Positions 2,893 through 18,020 of a stretch of 18,365 nt of DNA are shown here, piece after piece. Source of the stretch: Bacteroidales bacterium (GTDB lineage: Bacteria > Bacteroidota > Bacteroidia > Bacteroidales > UBA12077); the NCBI GenBank assembly GCA_028282585.1, contig JANQHR010000170.1, forward strand, positions 1-18,365, in the 5' to 3' direction. The translations under genes and the position numbers were made by a program. Position 1 is the stretch's first letter; each line of letters opens with the position of its first letter. The notes under the pieces were generated by a model. That model was not told where the DNA came from. It saw only the letters and a program-made list of their open reading frames with translations, and did not search any database.

Positions 2893-3357
2893 TTAATCTA
2901 ACTGGAATAGTTGTATATAATTGCCATTATCATCATCAAAAATGGCTTCGTAGCCATAATCGGTTTTTGCCAGTTCCTTTTTAAATTTTACACCTTTACT
3001 CTTAAGCTCTTCCACTGTTTTTTGGATATTATCCGAGCTAAATGAAATAACCGGCATCCCCATTTGATATAATTCTTTTTTAAATTTCTTAGCTATTTCA
3101 ATCCCACCGGGTTCTGTAGGCTCCAGTAATAAAGTAACCCCTTCAGCATCAAGCGGCGATTTAACAATAGCAAGATAGTTTTCGGGAGAGTACATAACCT
3201 CCTCAAAGCCTAATATTTCGGTATAGAATTTAAAAGCTTTAACCGGGTCTTCAACTAAAACGCTTACCATAGCTATTTTCATCGGATGTTCGTTTTGTCC
3301 CATAGTATGTAATGAAATTAAAATGGTTATTAAGATTATTAATACAATTCTCATCAT
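2893..3357 (-). CDS. VOC/glyoxalase family protein with a predicted signal peptide
   Basis: VSVLVEDPVKAFKFYTEILGF, ELKSKGVKF and AIFDDDNGNYIQL. The N-terminus MMRIVLIILITILISLHTMG|Q looks like a Sec signal peptide. Confidence 0.88.
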   Translation of the reverse strand: MMRIVLIILITILISLHTMGQNEHPMKIAMVSVLVEDPVKAFKFYTEILGFEEVMYSPENYLAIVKSPLDAEGVTLLLEPTEPGGIEIAKKFKKELYQMGMPVISFSSDNIQKTVEELKSKGVKFKKELAKTDYGYEAIFDDDNGNYIQLFQLD

Positions 3358-3423: not shown

Positions 3424-3453
3424 AAAAAAACCTCCACTCTTATCAAATGGAGG
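3424..3453 (-). terminator. Intrinsic terminator downstream of the cyanophycinase gene
   Basis: The minus strand reads CCTCCA-11 nt-TGGAGG followed by T7. Confidence 0.7.
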
Positions 3454-3561
3454 CTCAACTATGGTTAAACATATTTAACACCCCTTGCTAGAAACCGTTT
3501 AAATCCATAGTTACAATCGGGATCAATATTAAACCTAAAATTACGAGAGCAACGAAATCAT

Positions 3562-4434
3562 TTATTCCGTTATTTTGAACTGATCGCCAGGCAAAAAGAC
3601 ATTTAGCTCCATGTTCCCTGCTCCTAATAATTCATTAACAATTTTTGTTTCTTTTGATTTATGCCTAAGCACAATTACCTGGTAATTACCATAAACGGTT
3701 GCATTATTTCCCTCAACCAATATGGCTGTTGATTCATCAATACCTATGCCTGTTTCTTCAGGATTCTCAAGAACCGTAGAAATCAGTCTGTTCATTCGCA
3801 TTCGCCATACAAAATGCTGGTCGATAATTGCATTCTGTAATAGCCCCAATCCCTCTTCTATTTCGATGTTATTTGCTTCCAGGGTCCTGAAGTTACCCGT
3901 ATACTCCGGATATTTATGTTCGTTTCCCGTGATCATTTTTTTGCTCATTACAGCAGCGCCGGCACTTGTACCTGCTATTACCGAACCATTAAGATAAGCC
4001 TCATGAATTGCACCGTAAACGGCAGTATTATTTACTATTTCCATGAATCTGTTTTGGTCGCCACCTGAAATATAAATCAAAGATGCTTTCTTAAGTGAAT
4101 CAATCTTTGAATCGGTCATATCCTCATGAGTTTGCATATTAAAAGAAAAGATGTTTTCAATTCCATGATCCTTAAATTGTTTCATCCCATAAAAAGCTGC
4201 TGTGTCGGGAAATCCGCTGGACATAGGCAGAACAATGATATAACCAGAACTATCAACCTTTGAAATACGGATCATATCCTGTATCATGGTAGCCGGGCGC
4301 TTACCTCCTCCAACAATGAATAATTTTCCTTTGGGTATTGTTTCATTACCATCATTCTGTGCAGTATTTGTGCACGATATGGCAAAAAGCATAAGTATTA
4401 TAGCACCAATTACGTTTAGTTTATTTTTTTTCAT
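3562..4434 (-). CDS. cphB: Cyanophycinase (peptidase S51), predicted lipoprotein
   Basis: GKLFIVGGG, ISGGDQ, nucleophile motif AGTSAGA, IIDQHFVWRMRMNRL (catalytic His plus the R-x-R-x-x-R pattern of cyanophycinases) and GIGIDESTA (Glu). The start was moved from 4473 to the ATG at 4434 because this gives the lipoprotein signal MKKNKLNVIGAIILMLFAIS|C, and 4473 lies inside the promoter motif. Confidence 0.9.
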   Translation of the reverse strand: MKKNKLNVIGAIILMLFAISCTNTAQNDGNETIPKGKLFIVGGGKRPATMIQDMIRISKVDSSGYIIVLPMSSGFPDTAAFYGMKQFKDHGIENIFSFNMQTHEDMTDSKIDSLKKASLIYISGGDQNRFMEIVNNTAVYGAIHEAYLNGSVIAGTSAGAAVMSKKMITGNEHKYPEYTGNFRTLEANNIEIEEGLGLLQNAIIDQHFVWRMRMNRLISTVLENPEETGIGIDESTAILVEGNNATVYGNYQVIVLRHKSKETKIVNELLGAGNMELNVFLPGDQFKITE

Positions 4435-4455: not shown

Positions 4456-4487
4456 ATTAATACACTTATCCATTTGATTTCCCTTAA
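4456..4487 (-). promoter_or_regulatory. Putative ECF sigma promoter, copy upstream of cphB
   Basis: TTAAGGG-N17-GTATTAAT on the minus strand, ending 21 nt before the ATG at 4434. Confidence 0.72.
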
Positions 4488-4513
4488 ATCAACTCTGATT
4501 TTTTAATCCGGTG

Positions 4514-5680
4514 TTAATTTTCGTATGTTCCTTTTTTTAACATTTTGTAATCTGATACCATTAGTTGTCCACGGGCAATTACTTCTGATATTTGATTGTT
4601 GTTATCCAGAATCAAGAGGTCGGCATCAAGATTTTCCGCTATTCTTCCTTTATTTTTTAATTTTAATATATCAGCAACATTAGAGGTTACAACTTTAATA
4701 GCATCTTCCAATGGAACTTTTTCAATTTTTACTGTATCTATAAGCTCATCAAGTATTGACTTTGGTTGTCCCATTTCCAACCGAACTAAATTTCCGTTTT
4801 CATCAAAATCAGGGAGCGATCCGTTTCCATCCGATGTCATCGTAATATGTTCCAGGGGAACACCTGCTTTTAGAAATTCAGCTATTGCTTTTGAAGGTTT
4901 TATTTCGTATTCGGGATAATATGGGTAAGAACTTGTTGTAATATCTATATAACCATTCTTTCCATAAGTTTTTGCATCTTCAAAAATATACTCATTACGA
5001 TTACAATGCGTTGGAAAGAATTGTGTAAACTTCAACTCACTCTTTTCAACCGCATCATAAATAGGTTGGAAAGGATTTTTTGCATCGCCCATGTGTATAT
5101 TAGCAATACCTGCCTTACCTCCCAGCATTCCTCCTACCCTTGCGTGTTCTACCAGCCTTATTAATTCATTTGTTGTAGGGCACGAACTACGATGGTCGGA
5201 CAATGCAATTTCTCCAATACCGATTATCTCGTCAATCATTGCAATATCTTTTCCTACATCGCCCAAAATTGTCGGTGTTGGTACCTGATAAGATCCAGTG
5301 TACATCCATGCCGAAACTCCCTCTTCGCGTAATGATTTAACTTTCATTAAAACACCGTTTAACGAACGTGTCATACCATCAGTTCCCAGGCAACCTATTA
5401 CGGTTGTTATTCCACCCGCAAGCATTTGCGACAATTGCATTTCGGGTGTTCGTGTTGAAGGTCCTCCTTCTCCACCTGCACCGGCAATATGCACATGTGC
5501 ATCTATTAAACCCGGAACAATCTTTTTTCCTTTACCATCAATTATTTCGATATTCAGGTTTTTTAAACCGGATATATCAATATTGTTTTTAACCGCAATA
5601 ATTTTTTCACCTGCTGTTAATATGTCCTTTTCTCCCAAAAATTCAGGAGCATAAACAGATATCTTTTTTATTAAATACAT
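4514..5680 (-). CDS. iadA: Isoaspartyl dipeptidase (beta-aspartyl peptidase, amidohydrolase family M38)
   Basis: PGLIDAHVHIAGAGGEGG..TRTPE, GCLGTDG, YTGSY, EIALSDHRSS, HMGD, PTHCNR and TSDGNGSLP. No signal peptide. Confidence 0.96.
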   Translation of the reverse strand: MYLIKKISVYAPEFLGEKDILTAGEKIIAVKNNIDISGLKNLNIEIIDGKGKKIVPGLIDAHVHIAGAGGEGGPSTRTPEMQLSQMLAGGITTVIGCLGTDGMTRSLNGVLMKVKSLREEGVSAWMYTGSYQVPTPTILGDVGKDIAMIDEIIGIGEIALSDHRSSCPTTNELIRLVEHARVGGMLGGKAGIANIHMGDAKNPFQPIYDAVEKSELKFTQFFPTHCNRNEYIFEDAKTYGKNGYIDITTSSYPYYPEYEIKPSKAIAEFLKAGVPLEHITMTSDGNGSLPDFDENGNLVRLEMGQPKSILDELIDTVKIEKVPLEDAIKVVTSNVADILKLKNKGRIAENLDADLLILDNNNQISEVIARGQLMVSDYKMLKKGTYEN

Positions 5681-5707
5681 ATCAAACCATTAATTTAGTT
5701 ACTATAT

Positions 5708-5739
5708 AATAATACGAATTTTAATGAAATTACCCTTTA
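5708..5739 (-). promoter_or_regulatory. Putative ECF sigma promoter, copy upstream of iadA
   Basis: TAAAGGG-N17-GTATTATT on the minus strand, ending 27 nt before the ATG at 5680. Confidence 0.7.
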
Positions 5740-5847
5740 GCTTATCTTCATGTTAAACCAAATAATTATCTTTTCGTCAATTGATTTAACAGTTTTTTTT
5801 GATTTAAGTAATAAATTTTTAATTTTCGCCTAACAAATTCTCGACAC

Positions 5848-6432
5848 TTGAGTAAGGACGATAAAATATTGGTCGAAAGATTAAAGAATGATGACCGCGC
5901 AGCTTTTGAAAAGTTATTTAAACTTTATTCAGAACGAATTTATTATTTTACCATCCGATACATTAAGAATAAAGAAGAGGCTGAAGAAATTACACAAGAG
6001 GTATTTGTAAGGCTTTGGAACAGAAGGTTCGATTTAAAAACCGAACTTTCATTTAGCAGCTACCTTTTTATGATTGCTAAAAATGCTGTTATTGATTTGC
6101 TTAGAAAAAGACAAAAGGAATCTTCTTTAAACGAGGAGATTACTCCAGACGTAAATGCAATTGCGGAAAAATCAAATAATTCGGTTGAGTATAAAGAATT
6201 AAACGAAATCGTAAAAAATTCCATTTTGCAACTACCCGAAAAAAGAAGACAGATTTTTTTACTTAGTCGTAATGAGGGATTAACATATAAAGAAATTGCC
6301 GAAAAACTAAATATTTCGATAAAAACGGTTGAGTCGCATATGCGTCTGGCTTTACAACAATTAAAGAAAACTATTGGAAGCTCATACGAATTAATTTTAA
6401 CAGGAATTTTCTTCCTGCCATTTTTTTGGTGA
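5848..6432 (+). CDS. RNA polymerase ECF sigma-70 factor (Bacteroidota FecR-associated type)
   Basis: Region 2 AFEKLFKLY..EAEEITQEVFVRLW, region 4 LPEKRRQIFLLSRNEGLTYKEIAEKLNISIKTVESHM, and a hydrophobic C-terminal tail. TTG start. Confidence 0.96.
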   Translation: MSKDDKILVERLKNDDRAAFEKLFKLYSERIYYFTIRYIKNKEEAEEITQEVFVRLWNRRFDLKTELSFSSYLFMIAKNAVIDLLRKRQKESSLNEEITPDVNAIAEKSNNSVEYKELNEIVKNSILQLPEKRRQIFLLSRNEGLTYKEIAEKLNISIKTVESHMRLALQQLKKTIGSSYELILTGIFFLPFFW

Positions 6433-6447
6433 AAATATTAATTTAAG

Positions 6448-6480
6448 TTAAGGGTGAATATTAACTTTGCCCGTAATATT
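6448..6480 (+). promoter_or_regulatory. Putative ECF sigma promoter, copy upstream of fecR-susC-susD
   Basis: TTAAGGG-N18-GTAATATT between the sigma gene and fecR. Confidence 0.7.
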
Positions 6481-6509
6481 GAATGAAAAGGGGGAAGTAT
6501 TAAGAATAA

Positions 6510-7439
6510 ATGAAAATAAAGAATCAACATACAGGTAAGCATTCGGAAAAAAACGGCATACCAAGCGAAAAAGAAATGCTTGAAACATGGGAGAATTACA
6601 CCAAACATAAGAATGATTTTCCTAAACCCGATTTGGACTCCTTATGGGATAAAACAACCGAAGAAATCGGGTGGAAAAAAAGAAGGATCGGTTTTTTTCG
6701 AAACTCTTTTTTTCGTTATGCTGCTGCTATTTTACTACCAGTTCTTGTTATTGGTAGCGGGGTATATTTTTCAGTAATAAAAATAAACAACAGCCTAAAT
6801 TATGCCAGTTACGAATCTCCTGCCGGAGAGCGATCGAAGATAGAGTTACCGGATGGATCAACTATTTGGTTGCAACCAAACAGCAAAATAAAATACCCAA
6901 AGGAGTTCAAAGCAGATTTAAGAGAAATAGAGTTCTCCGGCCAGGGATATTTCGATATTCAAGAAAACCCGGAAATACCTTTTGTTGTTCATATTGATAA
7001 TATGAATGTGACTGTTTTGGGCACCCAATTTTATATTAAAGCCAATCAGAGCAATGATTTAATTGAAACAGGATTGATATCGGGGAAAGTGAAAATTAGC
7101 ACATCAAGGATTGAAAGAATTTTATCACCCAATAATGTTTTGGTTTATTCTAAATCTTTGAAGGATATCAAAGAATCTAAAGATCTACTGAATAATAAAT
7201 TCCATTGGGATAATGGAAGTATTGTTTTTGAAAATTGCAGGTTTGTGGATGTATTAACGGAAATTTCCGATTGGTATGATATTGATCTGGAAATAAATCC
7301 TGAACTTGAATTAGATACCAGAATAACGCTTACGATAAGAGAGGAGTCAATAAATGAGATTTTGGAAATTCTTAAAATAATTGTACCTTTTGAATTTCAC
7401 AAAAAGCAGGATAAAATAGTTGTAAGTACTATTTCTTGA
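6510..7439 (+). CDS. FecR-family anti-sigma factor
   Basis: Single transmembrane segment YAAAILLPVLVIGSGVYF, plus GERSKIELPDGSTIWL, GQGYFDI, PFVV and VLGTQF, and a C-terminal domain (W..GSIVFEN..ISDWYDIDL). It lies between the ECF sigma and the TonB-dependent receptor. Confidence 0.95.
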   Translation: MKIKNQHTGKHSEKNGIPSEKEMLETWENYTKHKNDFPKPDLDSLWDKTTEEIGWKKRRIGFFRNSFFRYAAAILLPVLVIGSGVYFSVIKINNSLNYASYESPAGERSKIELPDGSTIWLQPNSKIKYPKEFKADLREIEFSGQGYFDIQENPEIPFVVHIDNMNVTVLGTQFYIKANQSNDLIETGLISGKVKISTSRIERILSPNNVLVYSKSLKDIKESKDLLNNKFHWDNGSIVFENCRFVDVLTEISDWYDIDLEINPELELDTRITLTIREESINEILEILKIIVPFEFHKKQDKIVVSTIS

Positions 7440-7476
7440 GCGATATAGCTCCATAAGTTTTATTAATTTCTAAATA

Positions 7477-10400
7477 ATGAACCTAAATAATCAATTTAAG
7501 TTTTGGCCGATTATTTTGATGTTCAGTATTCTATTCTTCCAATCCAAGGCCCAGGAAAACGTATCAGTAAAGCTTAGAAATGACAGCCTGAAGGAGTTGT
7601 TTACCTCTCTTGAAAATCAAACAGAGTATACGTTTGTTTATAGTAACGACGATATTGATGTATCGCAAAGAATTACTTACAGAAAAAAGAACATTGAATT
7701 AACTGAATTGCTCCATGAGGTTTTTACAAAAAAAGATATTAATTTTCGACTAATCGGAAAGCAAATTATATTAACAAAAAAGATTCCCGAGCCGATACCT
7801 AAGGAACTAAAAACAACAAGCGGAACAGTCCGAAATAAATCCGATGATCTCCCACTTCCCGGTGTTAATGTGATTGTTAAAAACACAACTATAGGTACAA
7901 GTACAGATATTAACGGAACTTTCAGTTTTAAAATACCGGGAGATAGTAACGTCCTGGTATTTTCGTTTTTAGGCTTCAAAACTTTCGAATTAAATACGCT
8001 GGATCAGAATAACTTTAATATCCTGCTTGAAGAGGAACCGCAACTTATTGATGAAGTTATTGTTGTTGGGTATGGAAAAGAAAGTAAAACTAATTTATCC
8101 AGCTCGGTAAGCGATATAAGAGCCGAAAAAATCGGTGAAATTTTTACCTCAAATCTGTCTGAATCGATTAACGGCAAGTTAACCGGAATTCTTGTCAACC
8201 AAAATTCAGGAACACCAGGCGCAGCAACAACTTTAAGAATCCGGGGAATAAGTTCCATAACCGCAGGTGCGGACCCTCTGTATATTATTGATGGAGTTCC
8301 CGTTATTGCAATGGATCTTAGTCAAATATATTTTAACGGACAAGGAGTAAATACCATTTCTGATTTAAACCTGCCCGATATTGAATCTATTTCTATACTA
8401 AAAGACGCTTCTGCTACAGCAATATATGGTGCCAGAGGATCAAACGGAGTTGTTTTAATTACCACTAAACGCGGAAATGGAGAGGATTCTTTTATAAGAT
8501 TTAATGCGAAATATGGTTTACAGCAAGTAGCAAAGACCTATGGTATGCTTAATGCAGAAGAGTTTATGCGCTATAAAAACAACGCAGCCGAAAATAGTGG
8601 CGGTATTGCCGTATATTCCGAAGAAGATATTCTTAACAATAAATATGATACGGACTGGCAGAATGAGTTATACCGGATTGCTCCCGTGGAATCATACGAT
8701 TTAGCTTTCTCCGGAGGTACACATACAACCAGGTATTATTTAACCGGTAGCTATTTTAATCAGTCAGGGATTGTTGAAGGAACTGATTATAAAAGAATAA
8801 GCAGTAGAATTAACCTTGATCATAAATTCTCAAATCGTTTAAATCTGGGTGCGAGTATTTCCATTAACCGGGCTGTAAATAACAGAAAAGAAGGCGATCA
8901 ATCGCTAAACGGGCCGGTTCCAAATGCAATTTCATTACCTCCAATTTACCCTGTTTATAATAATGATGGAAGCTTTAACGAAGACGGACCGCTCGCTAAT
9001 CCGGTTTCCATAGCCAAACAGCACACAAACATAGCCTACTCATGGCATACTTATGGAAATACATTCCTGGATTTTAAGTTATTTAAAAACTTAATCTATA
9101 AAGTAAAATTCGGAGTAGATTATGTTAATTTCAGGGAACATACCTACGACCCTGCAACCACAAGGCAAGGCGCCAAATATCAAGGCTTAGGAATTGAATC
9201 AACTTCCGAAGCCCTTAAAACGCTCTTTAGTAATATCATAAATTACTCAACTATTATTAATGAAAAGCATAGCATTGATGTTGTTGCCGGTTATGAAATA
9301 GATAATGAACAGGTTAGTTCCACTTTTATGCGAGGTGAAACTTTTGCCAGTGAAAAATTGGAATATTTAGCCAGCGCAGTGGAAAAAGTATCTGCTGAAG
9401 CTTATTTTGAAGAATCTATTATCAATTCATTTTTGGGTAGGATCAAATATAAACTCAACAACAAATACATAGCAACGTTCAATGCACGTTACGATGGTTC
9501 ATCACGCTTCAGCAAGCAAAATCGTTATGGTTTTTTCCCCTCCGGTGATATCGCATGGAAAATATCAAAAGAAAATTTTTTTACTATTAACTTCGTAGAT
9601 GATTTAAAGATACGATCGAGCTATGGTGTTACCGGAAATGACAAAATACCTGAATTTCTTTATATTGCGCAATTCGGCGCCTCGGAATATGCCGGATCTC
9701 CTACTATTTATCCGGTTAATATATCCAATCCTTCATTAAAATGGGAAACTACAAAGCAATTCAACATTGGTATTGATTTATCCATTTTAAAAAGCAGGAT
9801 AGCACTAACTGCAGATTATTATCACAAAAAAACAGAAGATTTATTGTTGGAAAATCCTATCCCACCATCATCGGGATATGAAGAAATAATAACCAATACC
9901 GGGAAACTTGAAAATAAAGGTTTAGAATTAAATTTGAAATCTTTAAATATGAACCGCAGTTTTCGTTGGGAAAGCGAATTAAATATTTCGTTTAACCGAA
10001 ATGAGGTTACAAAGCTATATAATAATCAACCCATAGATAATATTGGCAGAGGCTATCAACGAATCGAAGCGGGTGAACCTATCGGAATTTTTTATGGTTA
10101 TAATTCTCTGGGTGTTGATCCGTCAACCGGCGATTTGATCTTTGAAGATGTTAATCAAAATGGTTTAATTGATATAAATGACAGAACAAAAATTGGCAAT
10201 CCTCATGCAAAATTTCTGGGTGGTTTTTCAAACATTTGGACCTATAAAAATTTCGAATTAAACTTGTTTTTGCAGTTTTCGTATGGAAATGACGTATTTA
10301 ACGGCACGCGCCGGTATATTGAATCCATGAAGGATGCTAACAATCAAACTACGGCTATTTTGGACCGCTGGCAAGAACCTGGCGATATTACGGATATCCC

Positions 10401-10707
10401 AAGGGCTACCAATTCCGATCCAAATGAGAATAACAGGGTTTCATCAAGGTATATTGAGGATGGGTCTTTTATTAAGTTTAAAACACTAAGGTTGTCTTAC
10501 AATCTTGATGAAAACTTTACAAACAGATTAAATATCAATGCGATTAATGTATTTATTTTAGCTCAAAACTTGTTTACGCTTACGAATTACAGCGGTTTGG
10601 ATCCTGAAGTAAATTATGCGGGTGCAGATGTAATTAGATCAGGTGTGGAGTTTTTCACATACCCTTCCGCTAAAATATATTCTGCCGGTTTATCTATTAA
10701 ATTCTAA
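7477..10707 (+). CDS. susC: SusC/RagA-family TonB-dependent transporter with an N-terminal STN signalling domain (transducer)
   Basis: Signal peptide ..SKA|Q, STN-like SLKELFTSLENQTEYTFVY, carboxypeptidase-regulatory-like PLPGVNVIVK..GTSTDING, EVIVVGYG, plug motifs PLYIIDG and DIESISILKDASATAIYGARGSNGVVLITTKRG, LKWETT, YSGLDPE, and a terminal Phe. Confidence 0.96.
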   Translation: MNLNNQFKFWPIILMFSILFFQSKAQENVSVKLRNDSLKELFTSLENQTEYTFVYSNDDIDVSQRITYRKKNIELTELLHEVFTKKDINFRLIGKQIILTKKIPEPIPKELKTTSGTVRNKSDDLPLPGVNVIVKNTTIGTSTDINGTFSFKIPGDSNVLVFSFLGFKTFELNTLDQNNFNILLEEEPQLIDEVIVVGYGKESKTNLSSSVSDIRAEKIGEIFTSNLSESINGKLTGILVNQNSGTPGAATTLRIRGISSITAGADPLYIIDGVPVIAMDLSQIYFNGQGVNTISDLNLPDIESISILKDASATAIYGARGSNGVVLITTKRGNGEDSFIRFNAKYGLQQVAKTYGMLNAEEFMRYKNNAAENSGGIAVYSEEDILNNKYDTDWQNELYRIAPVESYDLAFSGGTHTTRYYLTGSYFNQSGIVEGTDYKRISSRINLDHKFSNRLNLGASISINRAVNNRKEGDQSLNGPVPNAISLPPIYPVYNNDGSFNEDGPLANPVSIAKQHTNIAYSWHTYGNTFLDFKLFKNLIYKVKFGVDYVNFREHTYDPATTRQGAKYQGLGIESTSEALKTLFSNIINYSTIINEKHSIDVVAGYEIDNEQVSSTFMRGETFASEKLEYLASAVEKVSAEAYFEESIINSFLGRIKYKLNNKYIATFNARYDGSSRFSKQNRYGFFPSGDIAWKISKENFFTINFVDDLKIRSSYGVTGNDKIPEFLYIAQFGASEYAGSPTIYPVNISNPSLKWETTKQFNIGIDLSILKSRIALTADYYHKKTEDLLLENPIPPSSGYEEIITNTGKLENKGLELNLKSLNMNRSFRWESELNISFNRNEVTKLYNNQPIDNIGRGYQRIEAGEPIGIFYGYNSLGVDPSTGDLIFEDVNQNGLIDINDRTKIGNPHAKFLGGFSNIWTYKNFELNLFLQFSYGNDVFNGTRRYIESMKDANNQTTAILDRWQEPGDITDIPRATNSDPNENNRVSSRYIEDGSFIKFKTLRLSYNLDENFTNRLNINAINVFILAQNLFTLTNYSGLDPEVNYAGADVIRSGVEFFTYPSAKIYSAGLSIKF

Positions 10708-10717
10708 AAACCAGAAA

Positions 10718-12001
10718 ATGAAAAACAAATTATTAATCATATTATTCATCATTTTTTCAGGCTGTGAGGGAATTCTTGAATTGCAACCGACCGATTCGAT
10801 AAGTTCTGATATTGCTATTTTAAACGAAACTGATTTACAAAATACAATCAGAGGATGCTATGATGCACTGCAATTTGATGGTTACTACGGGCGATTAATG
10901 ATTGTAATTGGAGATATTGGGTCTGACAATGCTTTCAATGGTGGTACAATTTTAGAATATGACCAATTTAACAAAAATAGTGTAGAGCAAGATAACAGGT
11001 TTTTGGAAGATATCTGGACAACTCCTTACATTGCCATAAACAGGTGTAATACAGCTATTTTTCACACAAACAACTTTGATCAAATAACGGAAACCAAAAG
11101 AAATGAATATCTTGCCGAACTTCGATTTTTAAGAGCATTAAATTACTTTAACTTAACGCGTTTATTTAAGGATCTTCCGTTAAAATTAGAACCTACATTG
11201 GATACGGAAGATCTTAATGTGCCATTATCCGGTCAAAATATAATTTATGAGCAAATATTGGAAGATTTGAACTTTGCCAATAATAAAATTGCGAATACAG
11301 ATCCGTATTATGCTACGGACCTTGCTGTAAAAACGTTACTAGCTAAAGTTTACCTGGAAATCAGGGATTATGAAAAAGCTAATGATTTTGCAGAGCTTGT
11401 TATTTCAAGTGATAAAGAACTTCTTGAATCTTTTGATGAGTTATTTACCATCGAACATAATTCCGAGTCAATTTTTGAATTAAGTTTTACAGAAATTTTA
11501 ACTGATAAGAACAGGCTGGCAGAATACTGCTATCCTACCAATTTAGGAGGTAGATACGAAATAGCTCCTGAGATTAATTTAATTAACTCTTTTGAAGATG
11601 AAGATACCAGAAAGGATTTATTTTTGGGAAATACCCCGTATTGTAACAAATATGAAAGTCTTGCTTCCGGTGCCGATAATGTTTATATTTTTCGTTTAGC
11701 CGAGCTATACCTGATTCGTGCTGAAGCAAATGCACGATTGCAAAGGAATTTAACTGAAATTAATAATGATATAAATAGAATTAGGCTCAGAGCAGGTTTA
11801 AATAATATATTCTCCAGTTCGTACAGCGAATTACTGGACTTTATTGAATCTGAACGCCAACACGAATTTGCCTTTGAAGGACACAGAAGATTCGATTTGG
11901 TGAGAACCGGTAAAGCTTCTTTTGTTTTAGGTATTTCCGAAGAAGATTATTATTTTCCTATTCCATTATCGGAAATTAATACAAACAATCAAATCGATTA
12001 G
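10718..12001 (+). CDS. susD: RagB/SusD-family lipoprotein
   Basis: The start was moved to the ATG at 10718, giving lipobox MKNKLLIILFIIFSG|C. Motifs AELRFLRALNYFNL, FRLAELYLIRAEA, ERQHEFAFEGHRRFDLVR and FPIPLSEI. Confidence 0.95.
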   Translation: MKNKLLIILFIIFSGCEGILELQPTDSISSDIAILNETDLQNTIRGCYDALQFDGYYGRLMIVIGDIGSDNAFNGGTILEYDQFNKNSVEQDNRFLEDIWTTPYIAINRCNTAIFHTNNFDQITETKRNEYLAELRFLRALNYFNLTRLFKDLPLKLEPTLDTEDLNVPLSGQNIIYEQILEDLNFANNKIANTDPYYATDLAVKTLLAKVYLEIRDYEKANDFAELVISSDKELLESFDELFTIEHNSESIFELSFTEILTDKNRLAEYCYPTNLGGRYEIAPEINLINSFEDEDTRKDLFLGNTPYCNKYESLASGADNVYIFRLAELYLIRAEANARLQRNLTEINNDINRIRLRAGLNNIFSSSYSELLDFIESERQHEFAFEGHRRFDLVRTGKASFVLGISEEDYYFPIPLSEINTNNQID

Positions 12002-12006
12002 CCGCT

Positions 12007-13152
12007 ATGAAATTACAATTTGCTATAAGTACCGTGTTGATAATTCTTTTATTATCTTGTTCCAATGATGATTCTGGTTCTCCTACTCCTAGCACTCAAG
12101 CCAAATTTGTAGTTGAAATGGAAAATAATGGTATTGCACCGGCAAAGGTTAACTTTATTAATCAATCGGTAAATGCTTTAGATTATTTATGGGAATTTGG
12201 AACCGGAGAAATACTATTAACTATAAGTAAAGATACTATTTCATATGTATATGAAGATGCAGGAAGTTATACTATAACACTAAGTGTTGAATCACCTAAT
12301 CCGGAATTATATTATAATGTTTTGGAGTATGAAAAAACAATTGTAATAAGTGAAATACCGGTAAAGAGACTTTACTTTACCGATAGAGCAGAAAATAAAG
12401 TAAAATATATTGCTCTTGATGATAATTCTTTACCGGTAATAGAAGAATTTGAAAGCGCTACGTTAAACAAGCCTTATGGAATGCACATGGACACTACAAA
12501 CGGAAAATTATATGTTACCGATTATTCGGAGCAGGTAATGAATAGTTATAATTGGGATGGAACGGCACAGGAAATCTTAATGAATTCAAGCACTGAAAAT
12601 TTCGGGTCCCCGATCGGTATCATCGTAATTGGAAGTAAAATATATTGGGGAGAACCGGATGGTATTCATTGTGCCAATCTTGACGGATCAAATCCCCAGA
12701 TTTATATTCCAATATTGGGAGAATATCCACAAGATCTTACTTATGACCACATAAATAATGCTTTTTATTTTACGAATGACCTTGATCCTGAAAATGGCGG
12801 AATTTGGAAAGTCGATTTTGATGGTGGTAACTTAACGGAAATAATTCCTGATGTTTGGGGTGGAGCCATTGAAATTGATCCTGAAAATAACAGGCTGTAT
12901 TATTATATAGGTTATGAAGGAATGTATATATCGGGGCTAGATGGTAGTAATCCGATTTTATTTGATGCTTCAAATGCCGGAAAATGGGCATGGGGAATGG
13001 CTATTGATAAAGAAGGTGGTAAAATTTATTATCCAAATCGTGTGGATCTGACCATAATGAGAGCAAACCTGGACGGAAGTAATGTGGAGATTTTTATACC
13101 CTCCTCAGCAGATATTAATCCTAACGCAATGACGATTGATACATACAGATGA
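12007..13152 (+). CDS. Lipoprotein with a PKD domain and a six-bladed YWTD/LDL-receptor-class-B-like beta-propeller
   Basis: Lipobox LLLS|CSNDD. PKD-like VNFINQS..YLWEFGTG..YEDAGSYTITLSV. Repeats LYFTD, LYVTD, IYWGE, FYFTN, LYYYI and IYYPN, several followed by an (A)NLDGSN-like motif. Confidence 0.85.
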   Translation: MKLQFAISTVLIILLLSCSNDDSGSPTPSTQAKFVVEMENNGIAPAKVNFINQSVNALDYLWEFGTGEILLTISKDTISYVYEDAGSYTITLSVESPNPELYYNVLEYEKTIVISEIPVKRLYFTDRAENKVKYIALDDNSLPVIEEFESATLNKPYGMHMDTTNGKLYVTDYSEQVMNSYNWDGTAQEILMNSSTENFGSPIGIIVIGSKIYWGEPDGIHCANLDGSNPQIYIPILGEYPQDLTYDHINNAFYFTNDLDPENGGIWKVDFDGGNLTEIIPDVWGGAIEIDPENNRLYYYIGYEGMYISGLDGSNPILFDASNAGKWAWGMAIDKEGGKIYYPNRVDLTIMRANLDGSNVEIFIPSSADINPNAMTIDTYR

Positions 13153-13184
13153 AAAATGCTGTTGGAAAAAACCAACAGCATTTT
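13152..13184. terminator. Bidirectional intrinsic terminator between the convergent operons
   Basis: AAAAATGCTGTTGG-AAAAA-CCAACAGCATTTTT is a perfect 14-bp inverted repeat with T-tracts on both strands. Confidence 0.92.
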
Positions 13185-13201
13185 TATTTAAACCTTCAAA
13201 A

Positions 13202-14590
13202 TTATTCCTGATCCCACCAAAACCTATCTTGTAAATTCGGTAATGGTTTAGGAATGTTTGGATTATAAATTCTTTCACTTTGTGGATATGGTAACCTTCT
13301 TGGTATTTCTCCTCCGGGATTTTGATTATGATCTCCACCTTCGTTTGGAGTTAAAACCGGATAGCCAGTTCTTCGATAGTCGGTCCATGACTCAATACTG
13401 GCATACATAGCAATATATTTTTGCGTAATAATAGTTTCAAGATCATCATTAAAACTACCGGTTAAAATCACATTATCCGCAATGTATTGATTTATAATAG
13501 TGTCATGTATTGCATTACCCGACATTCTTTTCATATTCGCATAAACAGCTTCATTTAAAACATTTTGTACCTCAGGATCAATTGTATTTAACCTTAATCG
13601 TGCTTCTGCTTCGATAAATTTTTGCTCGAAAAAAGTCATTAAATGAACCGGTGATTCCGGTGAAGAATAATACCTGTTTTCAATATTTGACACACCGAAT
13701 TTCTTAATATAAAAAAGCGTATCCCTGGGATCATCCAGAATAAACATTAAAGAAGTAAAAAAATCATTTGGCTCAATATAACCTAATCTGGAATATGAAT
13801 AAAACGGACTTTGCTCAGATGCCGAATAACCATATTGGTATATCATATCATCTTCGTTTGACAACATTCCGTTTGTAACTGCATTCAAAGCTGCCTGGCT
13901 TGGGTTATAAGACAAATCAACTTCTCGCTTGGTTAAATGCATATAATATCTTGCTTTTAAAGCATAGGCTGTTTGTTTCCACTTAGCCATGTTACCTCCA
14001 AAAATCAAATCATCGGCTCCCGGTTTAATTCCCTCATTTTCCGTGTCAAAAGCAACAATTGCTTCATCCAATAATTGTTGAATAGTTTCATATATCAATT
14101 CTTGGGAATCATAGCGAGGATTTAAATTTGTAGAACTCTGTAATGCTTCAGAATATGGAACGTCTCCCCAAAGTGAAGTAACATTTCCTAAGCATAAAGC
14201 CATTAAAGTTTTTCCAATTCCAATGTAGTGAGGAACATAACCATTCTCCTCCGCAAACATCAACATTTGTTTTATATTGATCATTGGTCCATCATAATAA
14301 TCCTGAAAATTCCAGTCAGCATACAAAGCTTCATCAACAATATAATTTTGTACTGGTAATGGATGATTCTCAATGCCTTCATAATATTGAACAAATATTC
14401 CGCTCATAACTTGAGTAGTACCTATCATTAATCGGGCTAATGATTCTTGATTATAAGGAAGCAATACATTTACCGGTACTTCGGTTACATCATTTTTATT
14501 AACATTGGCTTCTTCTAATTCACAGGAATTAAACGAAATTATTATAAATGATGCAATCATTAAGAATGTATAATTTATTATCTTTTTCAT
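13202..14590 (-). CDS. susD: SusD/RagB-family lipoprotein (SusD-like_2 type)
   Basis: Lipobox ISFNS|C, LWGDVPYSEAL, PRYDSQELIY, IITQKYIAMY, ESWTDYRRTGYP, IPRRLPYPQSE and RFWWD. Confidence 0.94.
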   Translation of the reverse strand: MKKIINYTFLMIASFIIISFNSCELEEANVNKNDVTEVPVNVLLPYNQESLARLMIGTTQVMSGIFVQYYEGIENHPLPVQNYIVDEALYADWNFQDYYDGPMINIKQMLMFAEENGYVPHYIGIGKTLMALCLGNVTSLWGDVPYSEALQSSTNLNPRYDSQELIYETIQQLLDEAIVAFDTENEGIKPGADDLIFGGNMAKWKQTAYALKARYYMHLTKREVDLSYNPSQAALNAVTNGMLSNEDDMIYQYGYSASEQSPFYSYSRLGYIEPNDFFTSLMFILDDPRDTLFYIKKFGVSNIENRYYSSPESPVHLMTFFEQKFIEAEARLRLNTIDPEVQNVLNEAVYANMKRMSGNAIHDTIINQYIADNVILTGSFNDDLETIITQKYIAMYASIESWTDYRRTGYPVLTPNEGGDHNQNPGGEIPRRLPYPQSERIYNPNIPKPLPNLQDRFWWDQE

Positions 14591-14607
14591 TTTTAATCTA
14601 TTTATTA

Positions 14608-17600
14608 TTAAAAGTTAACAAGAAGATTAATTTCATAACTTCGCGTATTTGGCATATTAAAATAATCGCGGCCCAAACTGTTTGAAGCGCCTGATAAATT
14701 CGTTTCAGGGTCGATTCCCGAATAATCGGTGAATAATAATAAGTTTCTTCCACTCAACCCAATACTTAAGTTGGATACAGGTATTTTTTCAAACCATTTT
14801 GAAGGTAAGTTATACGATAATGAAACTTCTCTTAAACGAATATACGACCCATCTTCAATATAGGCCTCTGATAGTCCTGCTAATCCACCTTGTCTGCTAT
14901 AATACGATCGGTCTCTTTTTACCGGCACTTCATTCGGCAGTCCGGTATTTACATTTACACCATCGAAAATAAAATCTTCATCGCGGTTTTCTGTATATTT
15001 ATGAGTTCCAAGGGATGTCATTACGCCACGTGTTCCGTTAAATACATCTCCACCCTCTTTTATATCAATTACAGCGGTTAAACTTAAGCCTTTATAAGAA
15101 AAAGTATTTCTAAGCCCCATTATAAAATCAGGATTTGGATCACCAACAATACCGGCCTCAGTATCAATTAAAGGATACCCTTCATCATCCACTAATACAT
15201 CGCCATTTTCGTTTCTCAAAAACCTTCCGCCATATATTACTCCAAAAGGTTCGCCTTCGATTGCAACGGAGCGGGTGCTGCTTAATCCTGTAGTTGGGAA
15301 CTCAAATAGCGGAATCTCTTCTGGTAAATCCTCTACAATGTTTTTGTTTTTTGAAAAATTAACCGTTAAATCCCAGATAAAATCTTTAGTTTCAACAGGA
15401 GTTGCATACATCTGTATTTCAAATCCTTTATTTGAAATAATACCAGAGTTTAATACCATTTGCGGATATCCGGATGAGCTTGGAATATTTGCATCAATAA
15501 TTTGATTATCACTTTCAGAATGATAATAAGCAAAATCAACTCCTAACCTGTTTTGAAAAAATTTAAGCTCAACTCCTGCTTCATAAGATATTGTTTCTTC
15601 GGGATTAATTCCATTATTTCCAATCAACCCCCTTGTTCTGTAAGCAACCTGTCCTTGAATACCACCGTCAATAGCCTGAAAGTAATTCTGTAAACTATAA
15701 GGATCGGCGTCATATCCTCCCCTTGCGACAGATGCTCTTAATTTACCAAAACTAAAAAAAGGTATTCTTTCTTTAAAACGAAAGGCTTCGGAAAATATAA
15801 AGCTCAAATTCACGGAAGGATAATCAAACCAGTTTTTACTTGCAGGTAAAGTCGAAGACCAGTCTATTCTGTAAGTGGTATTAAAGTATAAATAATCGTT
15901 ATAAGATAATCTAATATCGTAATATGCACCTACTCTTTTATACTGAGACTCTGAATCGTCGCCAGCCGACTCTTCGGTATTCGAAATATCGTAATAGTTT
16001 GGTAAAACAAATTTATCACCTCGCTGATATATATAATATGTGTTTCTTGTAACATAATTATTACCTAACAAGGCTGTTAAGTTTAGCTTATCTGTAATAT
16101 CTTTTTCTAAAGTTAAGATTAAGTCGGAGTTGGTTGATTGAAATTCATAAGTACTAATATTTATATACCCATCAGGAGTATCACTTGAATTATTATCCAA
16201 ATAATTGCTTCTTTTATCGGTGTAATAATCCAATCCCAAACGATACATAATGTTTAACCATGGAGTAAATTTGTAATCAATCTGCGTATTACCCATCAAT
16301 CTGTTAACTGTTGAAAAAGCCTTATTTTTATTTATGGACCAATACGGATTATCATAGTTTGGAAAGTAATTTCGTTGTGTACCATCTGGTAACATATATG
16401 CGCTTTCGTCGTTAACCGGATCGCCAGATCCGTTCGTAATGTCAAATGTTGGTGTAACGCGCATCAAACCAACCATAACAGCAGATAAATTGCTTCCCTT
16501 TTGCATAAAAGTACCATCTGAATTAGCATAAGTGGCTTTCCCTGCAATTTTAAGCTTTTCACTTATTTGCATATCACCATTAATTTTAAAGGTTGTACGT
16601 TTAAACTCGCTATTAGGAACAATACCCGATTGATTTACATGTCCTGTAGAAATATGAAAATTACCCTTTTCATCACCTCCGCTCATGCTTAGGTAAGTAT
16701 CACTTTTAATTGCAGTCTGGAAAAAATCATTCACGTTTTCATATGGAACAACGCGCTGAGAAGTTGCCGTTGGGTCACTCATACCGACTATTCTTCCATT
16801 TTGATCCAACAAATAATCGGTGGCACCATCATAACGTAAAGTGTCAATTAGTGGCCCCCAGCTTGTATTCACCGTACTTGAATATTCAACAGCTCCCGTT
16901 GATGTATTATAAAATCCCTGCGCATATCTATATTGCTTTTCCGGTAATTTATTAACTTCATCAAAGCCAATAGAAGTTCTAAAAGTTATTTGTTTTCTAT
17001 CAGTTCCTCTCCCCTCACCTGATTTTGTTGTGATAATAATGGCACCATTTGCTGCCATTATACCATATAATGCAGTTGCTGTTGCTCCTTTAAGTACAGT
17101 TACTGATTCGATATCATTAGGATTTATATCAATTGCCCGGTTCGAATGATCAACATAATACGACCCGTCATAACTGTTATCTACAGGTACACCATCAACC
17201 ACAAACAAAGGCGAATTCGATCTTCCAAGCGAAGTTCTTCCCCTGATTACAATATTAGAAGAAGCGCCCGGAGTACCTGATGAGCTGGTAATTTCAACAC
17301 CGGCAACCTTAGAACTTAATGAATTAACAATATTAGGCTGGCTGGTTGCAATTAATTCATCTCCTTTTACCTCCTGGGCCGAATAACCTAATGATTTTTT
17401 CTCTCTTTTAATACCAATCGCTGTTACAATAACTTCATCCAAAGATTTTGTATCCGGCCTTAAATCCATATTAATAATAGTTTGAGGGCCAACAGTCATC
17501 TCCTCTTTTATATAGCCAACGTAACTATATATAAGGATATCTTCGACAGAAGTAACAAAAACGGAATAATTACCATCTATATCCGTTGTTGTTCCTATGG

Positions 17601-17739
17601 TACTGCCTTGCACAACAATTGTAGCACCTGGCAAAGGTTCTCCCGTATCAGCATCTTTAACACTACCTGTAATTTCTATTTGTGCATGTGTTGATGCGGA
17701 GAAGATAATTAACATTAAGAGTAAATAGATTTTTCGCAT
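14608..17739 (-). CDS. susC: SusC/RagA-family TonB-dependent transporter without an STN domain
   Basis: Signal peptide ..THA|Q, GEPLPGATIVV, EVIVTAIGIKREKKSLGYSAQEV, PLFVVDGVP, INPNDIESVTVLKGATATALYG..AANGAIIITTK, YSGIDPE, and a terminal Phe. Confidence 0.96.
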   Translation of the reverse strand: MRKIYLLLMLIIFSASTHAQIEITGSVKDADTGEPLPGATIVVQGSTIGTTTDIDGNYSVFVTSVEDILIYSYVGYIKEEMTVGPQTIINMDLRPDTKSLDEVIVTAIGIKREKKSLGYSAQEVKGDELIATSQPNIVNSLSSKVAGVEITSSSGTPGASSNIVIRGRTSLGRSNSPLFVVDGVPVDNSYDGSYYVDHSNRAIDINPNDIESVTVLKGATATALYGIMAANGAIIITTKSGEGRGTDRKQITFRTSIGFDEVNKLPEKQYRYAQGFYNTSTGAVEYSSTVNTSWGPLIDTLRYDGATDYLLDQNGRIVGMSDPTATSQRVVPYENVNDFFQTAIKSDTYLSMSGGDEKGNFHISTGHVNQSGIVPNSEFKRTTFKINGDMQISEKLKIAGKATYANSDGTFMQKGSNLSAVMVGLMRVTPTFDITNGSGDPVNDESAYMLPDGTQRNYFPNYDNPYWSINKNKAFSTVNRLMGNTQIDYKFTPWLNIMYRLGLDYYTDKRSNYLDNNSSDTPDGYINISTYEFQSTNSDLILTLEKDITDKLNLTALLGNNYVTRNTYYIYQRGDKFVLPNYYDISNTEESAGDDSESQYKRVGAYYDIRLSYNDYLYFNTTYRIDWSSTLPASKNWFDYPSVNLSFIFSEAFRFKERIPFFSFGKLRASVARGGYDADPYSLQNYFQAIDGGIQGQVAYRTRGLIGNNGINPEETISYEAGVELKFFQNRLGVDFAYYHSESDNQIIDANIPSSSGYPQMVLNSGIISNKGFEIQMYATPVETKDFIWDLTVNFSKNKNIVEDLPEEIPLFEFPTTGLSSTRSVAIEGEPFGVIYGGRFLRNENGDVLVDDEGYPLIDTEAGIVGDPNPDFIMGLRNTFSYKGLSLTAVIDIKEGGDVFNGTRGVMTSLGTHKYTENRDEDFIFDGVNVNTGLPNEVPVKRDRSYYSRQGGLAGLSEAYIEDGSYIRLREVSLSYNLPSKWFEKIPVSNLSIGLSGRNLLLFTDYSGIDPETNLSGASNSLGRDYFNMPNTRSYEINLLVNF

Positions 17740-17775
17740 TTTTATAAGATTTCATTAATATTTTTTATACATACT

Positions 17776-17807
17776 ATTAATACAGAAGAAATACAGTAAG
17801 CCCTTAA
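17776..17807 (-). promoter_or_regulatory. Putative ECF sigma promoter, copy upstream of the second susC
   Basis: TTAAGGG-N17-GTATTAAT on the minus strand, ending 36 nt before the ATG at 17739. Confidence 0.72.
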
Positions 17808-17950
17808 TGCAAAAACCTATTTTTTATTAACGTTAATTATAGCAAGGAATTAAACAAACCTGTCAAGTATAATTGCTTAAATAAAGCAGTGTTGATTTTA
17901 AGTTATCAGTATTTAAAAGTCAAGATTTATTAACTTTTTATTAAAAAGAA

Positions 17951-17982
17951 TTAAGGGTAAGATCATTTTATGAGGTAATAAT
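17951..17982 (+). promoter_or_regulatory. Putative ECF sigma promoter, copy upstream of the truncated ORF at 18021
   Basis: TTAAGGG-N17-GTAATAAT, ending 38 nt before the ATG at 18021. Confidence 0.72.
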
Positions 17983-18020
17983 AAGTGTAATAAAATTTAC
18001 TAACTAAAATTTAAACGCTT

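Follow-up and report, generated by a model that had tools for sequence, protein, structure and literature searches.

The closest described systems to the locus reported here are the PULs of B. thetaiotaomicron that use trans-envelope signalling. For these, the layout put forward by Martens et al. 2009 has the ECF gene behind a housekeeping promoter and the anti-sigma, SusC and enzyme genes behind ECF-dependent ones (excerpts of PMC2709373). The Bacteroidetes housekeeping consensus is quoted as -33 TTTG / -7 TAnnTTTG in excerpts of PMC7366714, which also state that in 2020 no promoter consensus was known for the SusC-linked ECF sigmas of B. thetaiotaomicron. Ravcheev et al. 2013 described ECF motif prediction as an open task, and the excerpts of that paper predict none (PMC3878776). 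A chain that runs from TonB-dependent transporter to FecR-type anti-sigma to ECF sigma, as it appears to do here, is also known from E. coli FecI/FecR/FecA and from ECF239-ECF243, which form the FecI-like clade, and ECF239 and ECF240 are Bacteroidetes-rich groups with FecR-like anti-sigma factors (Casas-Pastor et al. 2021, excerpts of PMC7826278).

Like the B. thetaiotaomicron systems in the excerpts of PMC2709373, our locus has an ECF sigma, a FecR-type anti-sigma and an N-terminally extended SusC in the same order, a sigma gene behind a candidate promoter of the -33/-7 type, and separate putative sigma-dependent promoters for the anti-sigma/SusC operon and for nearby enzymes. It differs in that the predicted enzymes are peptidases for a non-glycan polymer and not glycoside hydrolases, and in having six separate candidate promoters, two SusCD pairs and T9SS cargo. 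A conserved promoter consensus can be read here, whereas none is given in those excerpts. The difference from FecI/FecR/FecA is that the predicted substrate is not iron. When we compare the locus with cyanophycin degradation by CphB/CphE (PDB 7uqv, 3en0) and then IadA (PDB 1onw), both enzymes are present above their equivalog cut-offs, but here they appear to be coupled to SusCD transporters, to a second S51 protein that T9SS would secrete, and to an ECF switch. Excerpts of PMC6243061 note that in Cyclonatronum and Salinivirga a plain S51 peptidase has a Por-tailed partner, and mention no link to SusCD or an ECF sigma; among the title and abstract matches listed, we found no description of a cyanophycinase or cyanophycin locus with SusC, PUL or TonB. 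The ECF-assigned motif SM6 of Flavobacterium psychrophilum shares a CGT-like box in the -10 region of non-sigma-A Bacteroidota promoters, but SM6 serves T9SS and other genes genome-wide, possibly with several sigmas (excerpts of PMC9723704), while the present motif belongs to a single locus and has a distinct AAGGG -35 block. The regulatory principle is already established, and what is new is the promoter code and the probable substrate, which is a matter of detail and not of kind.

The window is the whole stretch of DNA that we analysed, 18,365 nt from a genome of 4,888,182 bp in 173 contigs with 32% G+C (labelled G000). The organism is known solely as a metagenome-assembled genome. An earlier note on this DNA claimed that five copies of a bipartite motif, TWAAGGG-N17/18-GTAWTAWT, mark the targets of an ECF sigma encoded in the window. 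A regex scan of the window returns exactly these five matches, and each of them is co-oriented with its downstream gene. All five sites are intergenic; counting from the coordinates of the genes, we put the intergenic share of the window at about 12%. As claimed, the spacer is 17 nt in four sites and 18 nt in the fecR site, and the spacer sequences are mutually unrelated. The features are listed below, with position matrix scores in bits and with gaps given as the distance between the motif's final base and the start codon.

3428..3456, minus strand: terminator-like hairpin of 12 pairs with a T-run, after cphB, dividing the proposed regulon from the VOC genes
3562..4434, minus strand: cphB-like cyanophycinase gene (TIGR02069, PDB 7uqv), lipoprotein-type signal peptide (…LFAISC)
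4456..4487, minus strand: candidate promoter P_cphB, TTAAGGG-N17-GTATTAAT, 21 nt before cphB ATG 4434, 18.9 bits
4514..5680, minus strand: iadA, isoaspartyl (beta-aspartyl) dipeptidase gene (TIGR01975, PDB 1onw)
5708..5739, minus strand: candidate promoter P_iadA, TAAAGGG-N17-GTATTATT, 27 nt before iadA ATG 5680, 24.5 bits
5798..5827, plus strand: housekeeping-type promoter candidate of the sigma gene, TTTG at 5798-5801, 18 nt, TAATTTTC at 5820-5827
5848..6432, plus strand: ECF sigma gene, 194 aa, TTG start (Pfam Sigma70_r2, Sigma70_r4_2, Sigma70_ECF)
6401..6427, plus strand: terminator-like hairpin with a T-run, inside the last sigma codons and just ahead of P_fecR
6448..6480, plus strand: candidate promoter P_fecR, TTAAGGG-N18-GTAATATT, 29 nt before fecR ATG 6510, 21.3 bits
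6510..7439, plus strand: fecR, FecR-type anti-sigma gene, 309 aa (Pfam FecR, FecR_C)
7477..10707, plus strand: susC1, TonB-dependent transporter gene, product extended at the N-terminus by about 90 residues (STN-like)
10643..12001, plus strand: susD1 (Pfam SusD_RagB, SusD-like_3)
12007..13152, plus strand: gene for a PKD-domain and beta-propeller-like protein (Pfam PKD, weak Ldl_recept_b), last gene of the putative fecR operon
13202..14590, minus strand: susD2 (Pfam SusD-like_2, 213.8 bits)
14608..17739, minus strand: susC2, TonB-dependent transporter gene without the N-terminal signalling extension
17776..17807, minus strand: candidate promoter P_susC2, TTAAGGG-N17-GTATTAAT, 36 nt before susC2 ATG 17739, 19.7 bits
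17951..17982, plus strand: site before ORF 18021, TTAAGGG-N17-GTAATAAT, 38 nt before the ATG, 20.1 bits
18021..18365, plus strand: 5' part of a large secreted protein gene, interrupted by the contig end, with the remainder opening contig C65

The distance of 21-38 nt from motif to ATG that the note gave holds at all five sites, with the cphB figure depending on a true ATG at 4434. Judged on sequence, cphB does start at 4434 and not at 4473; the mechanical start at 4473 falls within the motif, and ATG 4434 opens a lipoprotein-type signal peptide. P_cphB falls after the stop codon of iadA and ahead of the cphB start, P_fecR lies 15 nt past the sigma stop codon, and P_susC2 and the ORF 18021 site are divergent and 143 nt apart. 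With the position matrix, the five sites score 18.9-24.5 bits and the next-best window match 9.5 bits, one-base-shifted versions of the same sites excepted. P_iadA is the top-scoring match of the whole genome. The matrix finds no motif in the window before the VOC genes or the sigma gene, in agreement with the note, nor does it find one upstream of the small ORFs, susC1, susD1, the PKD gene or susD2.

The two-block form that the note proposed stands, and the conserved core is shorter than its pattern: T-W-AAGGG, 17/18 nt, GTA-W-T-A. We aligned 26 anchored sites from 6 genomes, with anchors picked by regex, so that conservation at the anchors is partly by construction. Away from the anchors, the only gains in information are at the pair of bases preceding AAGGG (0.9 and 0.8 bits) and at the three that follow GTA (0.8-1.0 bits); the spacer and flanks carry roughly 0-0.6 bits, the spacer on its own about 0-0.5. 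The spacer is 17 nt in 21 of the 26 sites and 18 nt in 5, a C precedes GTA in 15, and 2 have AAGGT instead of AAGGG. TWAAGGG would be the -35 element and (C)GTAWTA the -10 element, with 17-18 nt between. Promoters of the FecI-like sigma PvdS have TAAAT-N16-CGT, a layout that resembles TAAGGG-N16-CGTA here. A sigma-70 consensus scan was uninformative in this setting (89 matches against 88.9 expected).

The sigma protein belongs to NCBIfam TIGR02985, Sig70_bacteroi1, a Bacteroidetes ECF subfamily (163.5 bits against a cut-off of 126.4). Its own candidate promoter contains TAATTTTC, which by sequence match is one mismatch off the -7 consensus TAnnTTTG. The arrangement TTTG-N18-TAnnTTTC is present in G000 and in three related genomes (G041, G008 and G001), and a fourth, G022, keeps the TAATTTTC box. 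The hairpin at the end of the sigma gene is also visible in G041 and is not obvious in G008 or G001. SusC1 matches STN over residues 51-102 with 22.1 bits, short of the Pfam cut-off of 28.4, though the match spans the whole model (positions 1-52 of 52); SusC1 is the probable signal transducer. SusC2 has CarboxypepD_reg from residue 23 and no STN match. The true start of susD1 is probably later than the mechanical one, because the latter overlaps susC1.

Both enzymes score above their family cut-offs and match solved enzymes. IadA scores 492.6 bits with TIGR01975 over residues 2-387 (equivalog cut-off 331.25) and matches PDB 1onw at E 1.3e-100. CphB scores 162 bits with TIGR02069, peptidase S51 (equivalog cut-off 126.6), and matches the cyanophycinase PDB 7uqv at E 1.7e-32 with the serine-nucleophile motif GTSAGA aligned. 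The VOC genes do not adjoin cphB in G041, G008, G022 or G001. For the interrupted gene at 18021, the G041 orthologue is 837 aa long with a T9SS sorting tail, DUF5018 and choice-of-anchor J, and C65:5-1372 matches residues 286-837 of that orthologue.

The regulon members that the note proposed in the window hold up, and the proposed regulon continues past the window edge: the adjoining contig C65 has a sixth, degenerate candidate promoter, ahead of genes for a secreted cyanophycinase-like protein and a YfcC transporter. In G000 this site has two deviations from the TWAAGGG-N17/18-GTAWTAWT pattern and ranks about 30th genome-wide. The G041 orthologue of this cyanophycinase-like C65 gene encodes a second S51 protein, which carries a T9SS tail, and its TIGR02069 score of 95.5 bits is below the cut-off of 126.6. 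Among 17 examined matrix matches outside the window, only the C65 site and one on contig C135 were intergenic and had, no more than 150 nt away, the start of a co-oriented gene of 80 aa or longer. Most high-scoring matrix matches off the locus fall inside long open frames and were set aside. The C135:62995 site precedes a hut-linked YfcC paralogue and is kept in G041. In G008, G022 and G007 a conserved spacer segment stays there while AAGGG and GTA are gone, and G001 has a core motif at another place before its homologue. We excluded the C135 site from the regulon count, and in G000 and G041 the same sigma may reach this unlinked YfcC paralogue beside the hut genes.

Four further genomes (G041, G008, G022 and G001) have an orthologous sigma that is 64-97% identical; the five close-sigma genomes belong to one genus-level group and so are not independent of each other. 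In these four, orthologous genes are again preceded by the motif, while spacers and flanks diverge. It stands before iadA in five genomes (kept in all four relatives) and before fecR in five (likewise, with AAGGT in G022). Four genomes have it before susC2 and four before the secreted-protein gene, both sites being kept in G041, G008 and G022, and four have it before the S51-T9SS gene. P_cphB is kept in G041, and a site precedes cphB in G001 and G007 too. Where the promoters stand follows the operon structure: the cphB gene of G008 lies 23 nt after iadA and lacks a site of its own. The PKD gene is syntenic in G041, G008, G022, G001 and the locus L022. Genomes with a sigma orthologue have 3-6 motif matches inside the locus. 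A core-like site in G008 (L013:6289-6316, minus strand) after the locus yfcC paralogue was left uncounted, as a terminator-like hairpin directly follows it. Further away, TTAAGGG-N17-GT remains before fecR in G007 and L022 despite a sigma that is only 44% identical. More distant loci carrying these same genes (G032/L017 and L022, whose sigma is about 44% identical) have no site in promoter position except that of L022 fecR; therefore either the promoter code drifts or their sigmas are not orthologous.

Could the five matches be a chance product of AT-rich intergenic DNA? The genome is 32% G+C and the -10 block is itself AT-rich, with GTAWTAWT alone matching 3,066 times, but we consider chance a negligible explanation. 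With the relaxed pattern AAGGG-N17/18-GTAWTA, the window has 5 matches against a mean of 0.07 and a largest count of 1 in 200 dinucleotide-preserving shuffles, none of which reached 2. The strict pattern, which the note described for this locus, occurs 8 times in 4.89 Mb, and 5 of the 8 are on this 18-kb contig, 0.4% of the genome. We judged the remaining three (C125, C146 and C169) to be chance from their contexts, which are a hairpin between two genes on the same (minus) strand, a start-codon overlap and a convergent gap without a downstream gene. The sites are conserved across genomes, and a matrix built from nothing but 9 orthologous sites of G008, G022 and G001 places the five sites of the window at ranks 1, 4, 5, 6 and 9 genome-wide. 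A transcribed or structural element, either a common 5'-leader element or what is left of some small repeat after its spread in the locus, is slightly less far-fetched and still very improbable. Strong conservation just 3' of the -10 block before susC2 and the secreted-protein gene means that some leader-level feature therefore exists there. However, that conservation is gene-specific and not common to the five sites, and the two blocks are not mutually complementary. Spacers are unrelated among sites and diverge among genomes while the blocks and their distance stay fixed, unlike what a mobile repeat or an RNA helix would give.

The alternative that we take most seriously, and still regard as unlikely, is that these are real promoters or operators read by a regulator encoded elsewhere, such as a different ECF sigma (perhaps one linked to T9SS or nutrient stress) or an activator that binds DNA, with the adjoining sigma controlling part or none of the locus. 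Cross-talk between ECF sigmas and related promoters has been reported in B. thetaiotaomicron (excerpts of PMC2709373). Two of the regulon members are T9SS cargo. The region upstream of a paralogous FecR gene on contig C79 has the same GTATTAAT block with a different upstream block, and therefore -10-like elements may be common to ECF paralogues. What argues for the local sigma instead is that the motif clusters only around this sigma/FecR pair in every genome examined and stands directly ahead of fecR, the classic position of a cognate ECF-dependent promoter. Within the genome, the motif is confined to this locus. G000 has only 5 FecR genes, and we did not find the motif upstream of the other 4. 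The note had granted that a motif common at unrelated ECF loci would give no link to this one. We compared 80 loci that surround relatives of the sigma: those of the 3 close orthologues have 2-3 core matches each within 1.5 kb of the sigma, while the 76 unrelated loci, which lack iadA, have 11 scattered core matches in total and no enrichment. Five same-genus genomes without a sigma match at E<=1e-30 have no cluster of three or more matches; their 54 matches in about 22 Mb are not above the reversed-pattern control. Most transcription-factor sites are palindromes or direct repeats, but these blocks are neither, and their spacing fits a -35/-10 pair.

All of the in-silico tests that we ran agree with an ECF-type promoter tied to the local sigma, and this reading is supported by sequence comparison. 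We think it very likely that the locus is an ECF/FecR/SusC trans-envelope switch, and that the six sites are the target promoters of the sigma at 5848-6432, driving a cyanophycin-utilisation regulon. What the sequence shows is the motif, with its statistics, locus specificity and conservation, together with the family assignments; which sigma uses the promoters, where transcription starts, how far the operons reach, what the inducer is and what the substrate is are what we infer. In the proposed mechanism, most likely similar to that of the Bacteroides PULs, the housekeeping -33/-7 promoter would read the sigma gene, and FecR would keep the sigma inactive. When substrate engages SusC1, which has the putative N-terminal signalling extension, FecR would release the sigma. 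The sigma would then drive six units: fecR-susC1-susD1-PKD, iadA, cphB, susC2-susD2, the large T9SS-secreted protein, and the C65 unit, predicted to encode a T9SS-secreted cyanophycinase-like protein and a YfcC-type inner-membrane transporter.

By gene content, and at the level of family membership, the substrate is probably cyanophycin or its beta-Asp-Arg fragments. The route would run from extracellular depolymerisation through SusCD uptake and inner-membrane crossing to cleavage by IadA. A bolder proposal, which we put forward tentatively and which could well turn out wrong, is that this is a dedicated cyanophycin utilisation locus, a PUL-style machine for a nitrogen-rich non-glycan polymer. 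It would combine two SusCD pairs with a cyanophycinase that is a surface lipoprotein, a cyanophycinase-like enzyme secreted by T9SS, a YfcC-type importer and IadA, all under one sigma with the simple, portable code TWAAGGG-N17/18-GTAWTA, and beta-Asp-Arg oligomers on their way through SusC1 would be the inducer.

The promoters of the many SusC-linked ECF sigmas of Bacteroidota are mostly undefined, as excerpts of PMC7366714 and PMC3878776 indicate for B. thetaiotaomicron. This locus is a clean cross-species case in which the -35/-10 blocks and the predicted full target set and operon boundaries are legible from sequence. If the assignment is true, few explicit promoter codes would have come earlier for a FecI-like sigma linked to SusC in Bacteroidota, and this one would offer a small orthogonal sigma/promoter pair that is directly testable in reporter assays. 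For the organisms themselves, the set of genes suggests scavenging of cyanophycin, a cyanobacterial nitrogen store, by uncultured Bacteroidales associated with corals, via PUL-like uptake.

The bipartite pattern TWAAGGG-N17/18-GTAWTAWT, which an earlier note had proposed as the -35/-10 promoter signal of the local ECF sigma factor (encoded at 5848-6432), matches the window exactly five times, with coordinates and strands as that note gave them (4456-4487, 5708-5739 and 17776-17807 on the minus strand; 6448-6480 and 17951-17982 on the plus strand). The spacers are unrelated in sequence, and as claimed they are 17 nt long in four of the five sites and 18 nt in the fecR site. The distance to the gene, put at 21-38 nt, is also right: counted from the last motif base to the start codon it is 21 nt for cphB, 27 for iadA, 29 for fecR, 36 for susC2 and 38 for the secreted-protein gene. 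The window is all of contig C34, 18,365 bp long (33.5% G+C), from a genome of 4.89 Mb in 173 contigs. Gene names were assigned through Pfam, NCBIfam and PDB sequence matches.

Features of the window
2250-2672 and 2893-3357, both minus: VOC/glyoxalase gene pair
3428-3456: terminator-like hairpin after cphB, between the putative regulon and the VOC genes
3562-4434, minus: cyanophycinase, cphB (TIGR02069, 162 bits against a cut-off of 126.6; PDB 7uqv, E 1.7e-32, GTSAGA aligned)
4514-5680, minus: isoaspartyl dipeptidase, iadA (TIGR01975, 492.6 bits against a cut-off of 331.25; PDB 1onw, E 1.3e-100)
5848-6432, plus: ECF sigma (TIGR02985)
6401-6427, plus: terminator-like hairpin and T-run in the last sigma codons, just before the fecR site
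6510-7439: FecR anti-sigma
7477-10707: SusC1
ending at 12001: SusD1
12007-13152: PKD/propeller-like protein
13202-14590, minus: SusD2
14608-17739, minus: SusC2
from 18021: secreted protein, first 115 codons, then off the contig end

The mechanical start of cphB, 4473, falls inside the motif site; the likely start is the ATG at 4434, which opens a lipoprotein-type signal peptide. SusC1 has an extra N-terminal segment, absent from SusC2, with a full-length STN match that is below threshold. To the left of the VOC genes there are three small ORFs (110, 117 and 163 aa) at 405-896 and 978-1656, all on the minus strand, with no match in Pfam or NCBIfam; the earlier note called part of this stretch a "cassette".

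The relaxed form AAGGG-N17/18-GTAWTA has five matches in the window where 0.07 are expected (200 shuffles, with a largest count of 1). By position matrix, the five sites score 18.9-24.5 bits and everything else in the window at most 9.5 bits, with one-base-shifted versions of the same five sites set aside. The same scan bears out the claim that the motif is absent before the VOC genes and the sigma gene, and it found no site before the small ORFs or the genes inside the SusCD operons.

It was also possible that the motif is common upstream of unrelated ECF loci and so gives no link to this one. We found that it is not, because several checks of specificity agree. Across the 4.89 Mb genome the strict pattern has eight matches, five of them in the window. 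The other three are at non-promoter positions: the first is a hairpin with same-strand genes on either side, the second overlaps with a start codon and the third falls in a convergent gap. An independent matrix, for which the sole input was nine orthologous sites in three comparison genomes (G008, G022 and G001), was run over the whole genome and ranks the window sites 1, 4, 5, 6 and 9; most of the other high-scoring matches are within long open frames or have no downstream gene. The genome has only five FecR genes, and the regions upstream of the other four are without the motif. Upstream of one of these paralogues, on contig C79, a GTATTAAT block lies about 17 nt downstream of ATAGGCC, not TTAAGGG, which hints at a shared -10 element with differing -35 elements among paralogous ECF sigmas.

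We also looked at 80 loci around relatives of the sigma from the genome collection. The three close orthologues among them (sigma 64-97% identical) have 2-3 core matches no more than 1.5 kb from the sigma gene; the fourth locus that carries iadA (L022, sigma 44% identical) has a single core match, which lies within a gene. In the 76 loci that lack iadA, core matches total 11; they are scattered, with none clustered near the sigma gene. Genomes with an orthologue of the sigma have 3-6 matches inside the locus. In five genomes of the same genus in which the sigma query has no match at E<=1e-30, there are 54 matches in about 22 Mb, which is not above the reversed-pattern control, and nowhere do three or more cluster.

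The locus is syntenic in G041 (sigma 97% identical), G008 (71%), G022 (72%) and G001 (64%), although genomes with a close sigma form one genus-level group, so these observations are related and not independent. The common gene order is iadA / sigma-fecR-susC1-susD1-PKD / susD2-susC2 / secreted protein. Orthologous upstream regions have diverged heavily, yet both blocks and their spacing are kept: before iadA and fecR in five genomes each, and before susC2 and the secreted-protein gene in four each. The fecR site in G022 reads AAGGT, and the cphB site is kept in the window's genome, G041 and G001. When 26 sites from six genomes are stacked on anchor bases, 21 have a 17-nt spacer and five an 18-nt one. 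The conservation of these anchor bases is inflated since they were chosen by regular expression; beyond them, the only rise in information is at the two positions directly preceding AAGGG and the three directly following GTA. Immediately before GTA, 15 of the 26 sites have a C. With sigma identity down to about 44%, G007 (GTT) and L022 (GTAAAT) still have TTAAGGG-N17-GT before fecR; in G007 a full site also precedes cphB. The comparison genome G032 has no motif at promoter positions.

Predicted promoter placement tracks operon structure, and the apparent gain and loss of promoters tracks gene-order rearrangements between genomes such as G008 and G007. In G008, cphB begins 23 nt after iadA, and no separate site precedes it. 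In the G008 locus (L013, 6318-9990), iadA, cphB and yfcC form a tight operon with a single predicted promoter; in the G007 locus (L018, 627-4160), iadA, sigma, cphB and yfcC are on one strand, with a site before cphB.

The leaders below the -10 blocks of susC2 (17740-17775, minus) and the secreted-protein gene (17983-18020, plus) are near-identical in the window's genome, G041 and G008, the second one partly also in G022. Unlike the leaders, the DNA upstream of the two -35 blocks has diverged. These leaders may be a control element at the level of translation or RNA.

G041 has a further site, the sixth, upstream of the gene for an S51 protein of 664 aa that carries a T9SS sorting tail; a YfcC-like transporter gene comes next. 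In the window's genome the counterparts are on contig C65. Because the first 1.4 kb of C65 encodes the C-terminal portion of the gene truncated at 18365, C34 and C65 adjoin, and the putative regulon reaches past the window edge onto C65. An excerpt of PMC6243061 mentions two other bacteria in which a plain S51 peptidase is paired with a second, Por-tailed S51 peptidase.

Sites beyond the window
C65:5214-5245, minus: degenerate sixth site, ATAAGGG-N17-GTATAATT, 15 nt before an ATG
C135:62995-63026, plus: candidate site, TTAAGGG-N17-GTATTGAT, 60 nt ahead of the gene for a YfcC paralogue of 540 aa

The C65 site deviates from the pattern at two bases and ranks about 30th in the genome by matrix; it is kept in place in G041, G008 and G022. 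The C135 paralogue adjoins hutI- and ftcD-like genes. Its site is kept only in G041, while G008, G022 and G007 keep just the "spacer" segment TACGAAAWTACAAAA, so it may be an unlinked member of the regulon or may be due to chance.

In place of the motif, the sigma gene carries TTTG-N18-TAATTTTC (5798-5827), which is conserved in relatives and differs at one base from the Bacteroidetes housekeeping -33/-7 consensus as quoted from PMC7366714. The hairpin at 6401-6427 would keep transcription of the sigma gene from running on into fecR-susC1. It is present in G041 and is not clear in G008 or G001.

The motif itself is confirmed, and we consider it very probable, from the in silico evidence, that it marks an ECF regulon. 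The sites would be the -35 and -10 elements of the window's sigma, driving six units: fecR-susC1-susD1-PKD, iadA, cphB, susC2-susD2, the secreted protein, and the S51-T9SS and YfcC genes on C65. We infer this pairing, as we do the transcription starts and the inducer, and we read the sites this way because the layout is the one proposed for trans-envelope signalling in Bacteroides (PMC2709373, in the part used here), in which a housekeeping promoter primes the ECF gene and the genes for the anti-sigma, SusC and enzymes have promoters that need the ECF sigma. Here too the sigma gene would be primed from a housekeeping promoter, and ECF-dependent promoters would serve the anti-sigma, SusC and enzyme genes.

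The set of genes makes cyanophycin the probable substrate. Two enzymes, CphB as a lipoprotein and the S51 protein secreted by T9SS, would depolymerise it outside the cell. Uptake across the outer membrane would be via SusCD and import through the inner membrane possibly by YfcC, after which IadA would split beta-Asp-Arg. Among the titles and abstracts listed by our literature searches, none connects either cyanophycin or its cyanophycinase with SusC, with PULs or with TonB. For the ECF sigmas of B. thetaiotaomicron, no such motif was known according to the sections of PMC7366714 we drew on, and a passage of PMC3878776 treats its prediction as an open task; other ECF sigmas, SigW-1 and SigH-1, have non-canonical -30/-10 motifs (PMC12596196). 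The regulatory design is already known, and what is new is an explicit predicted promoter consensus for a SusC-linked, FecR-paired ECF sigma of the Bacteroidota, together with cyanophycin as the apparent substrate of the locus.
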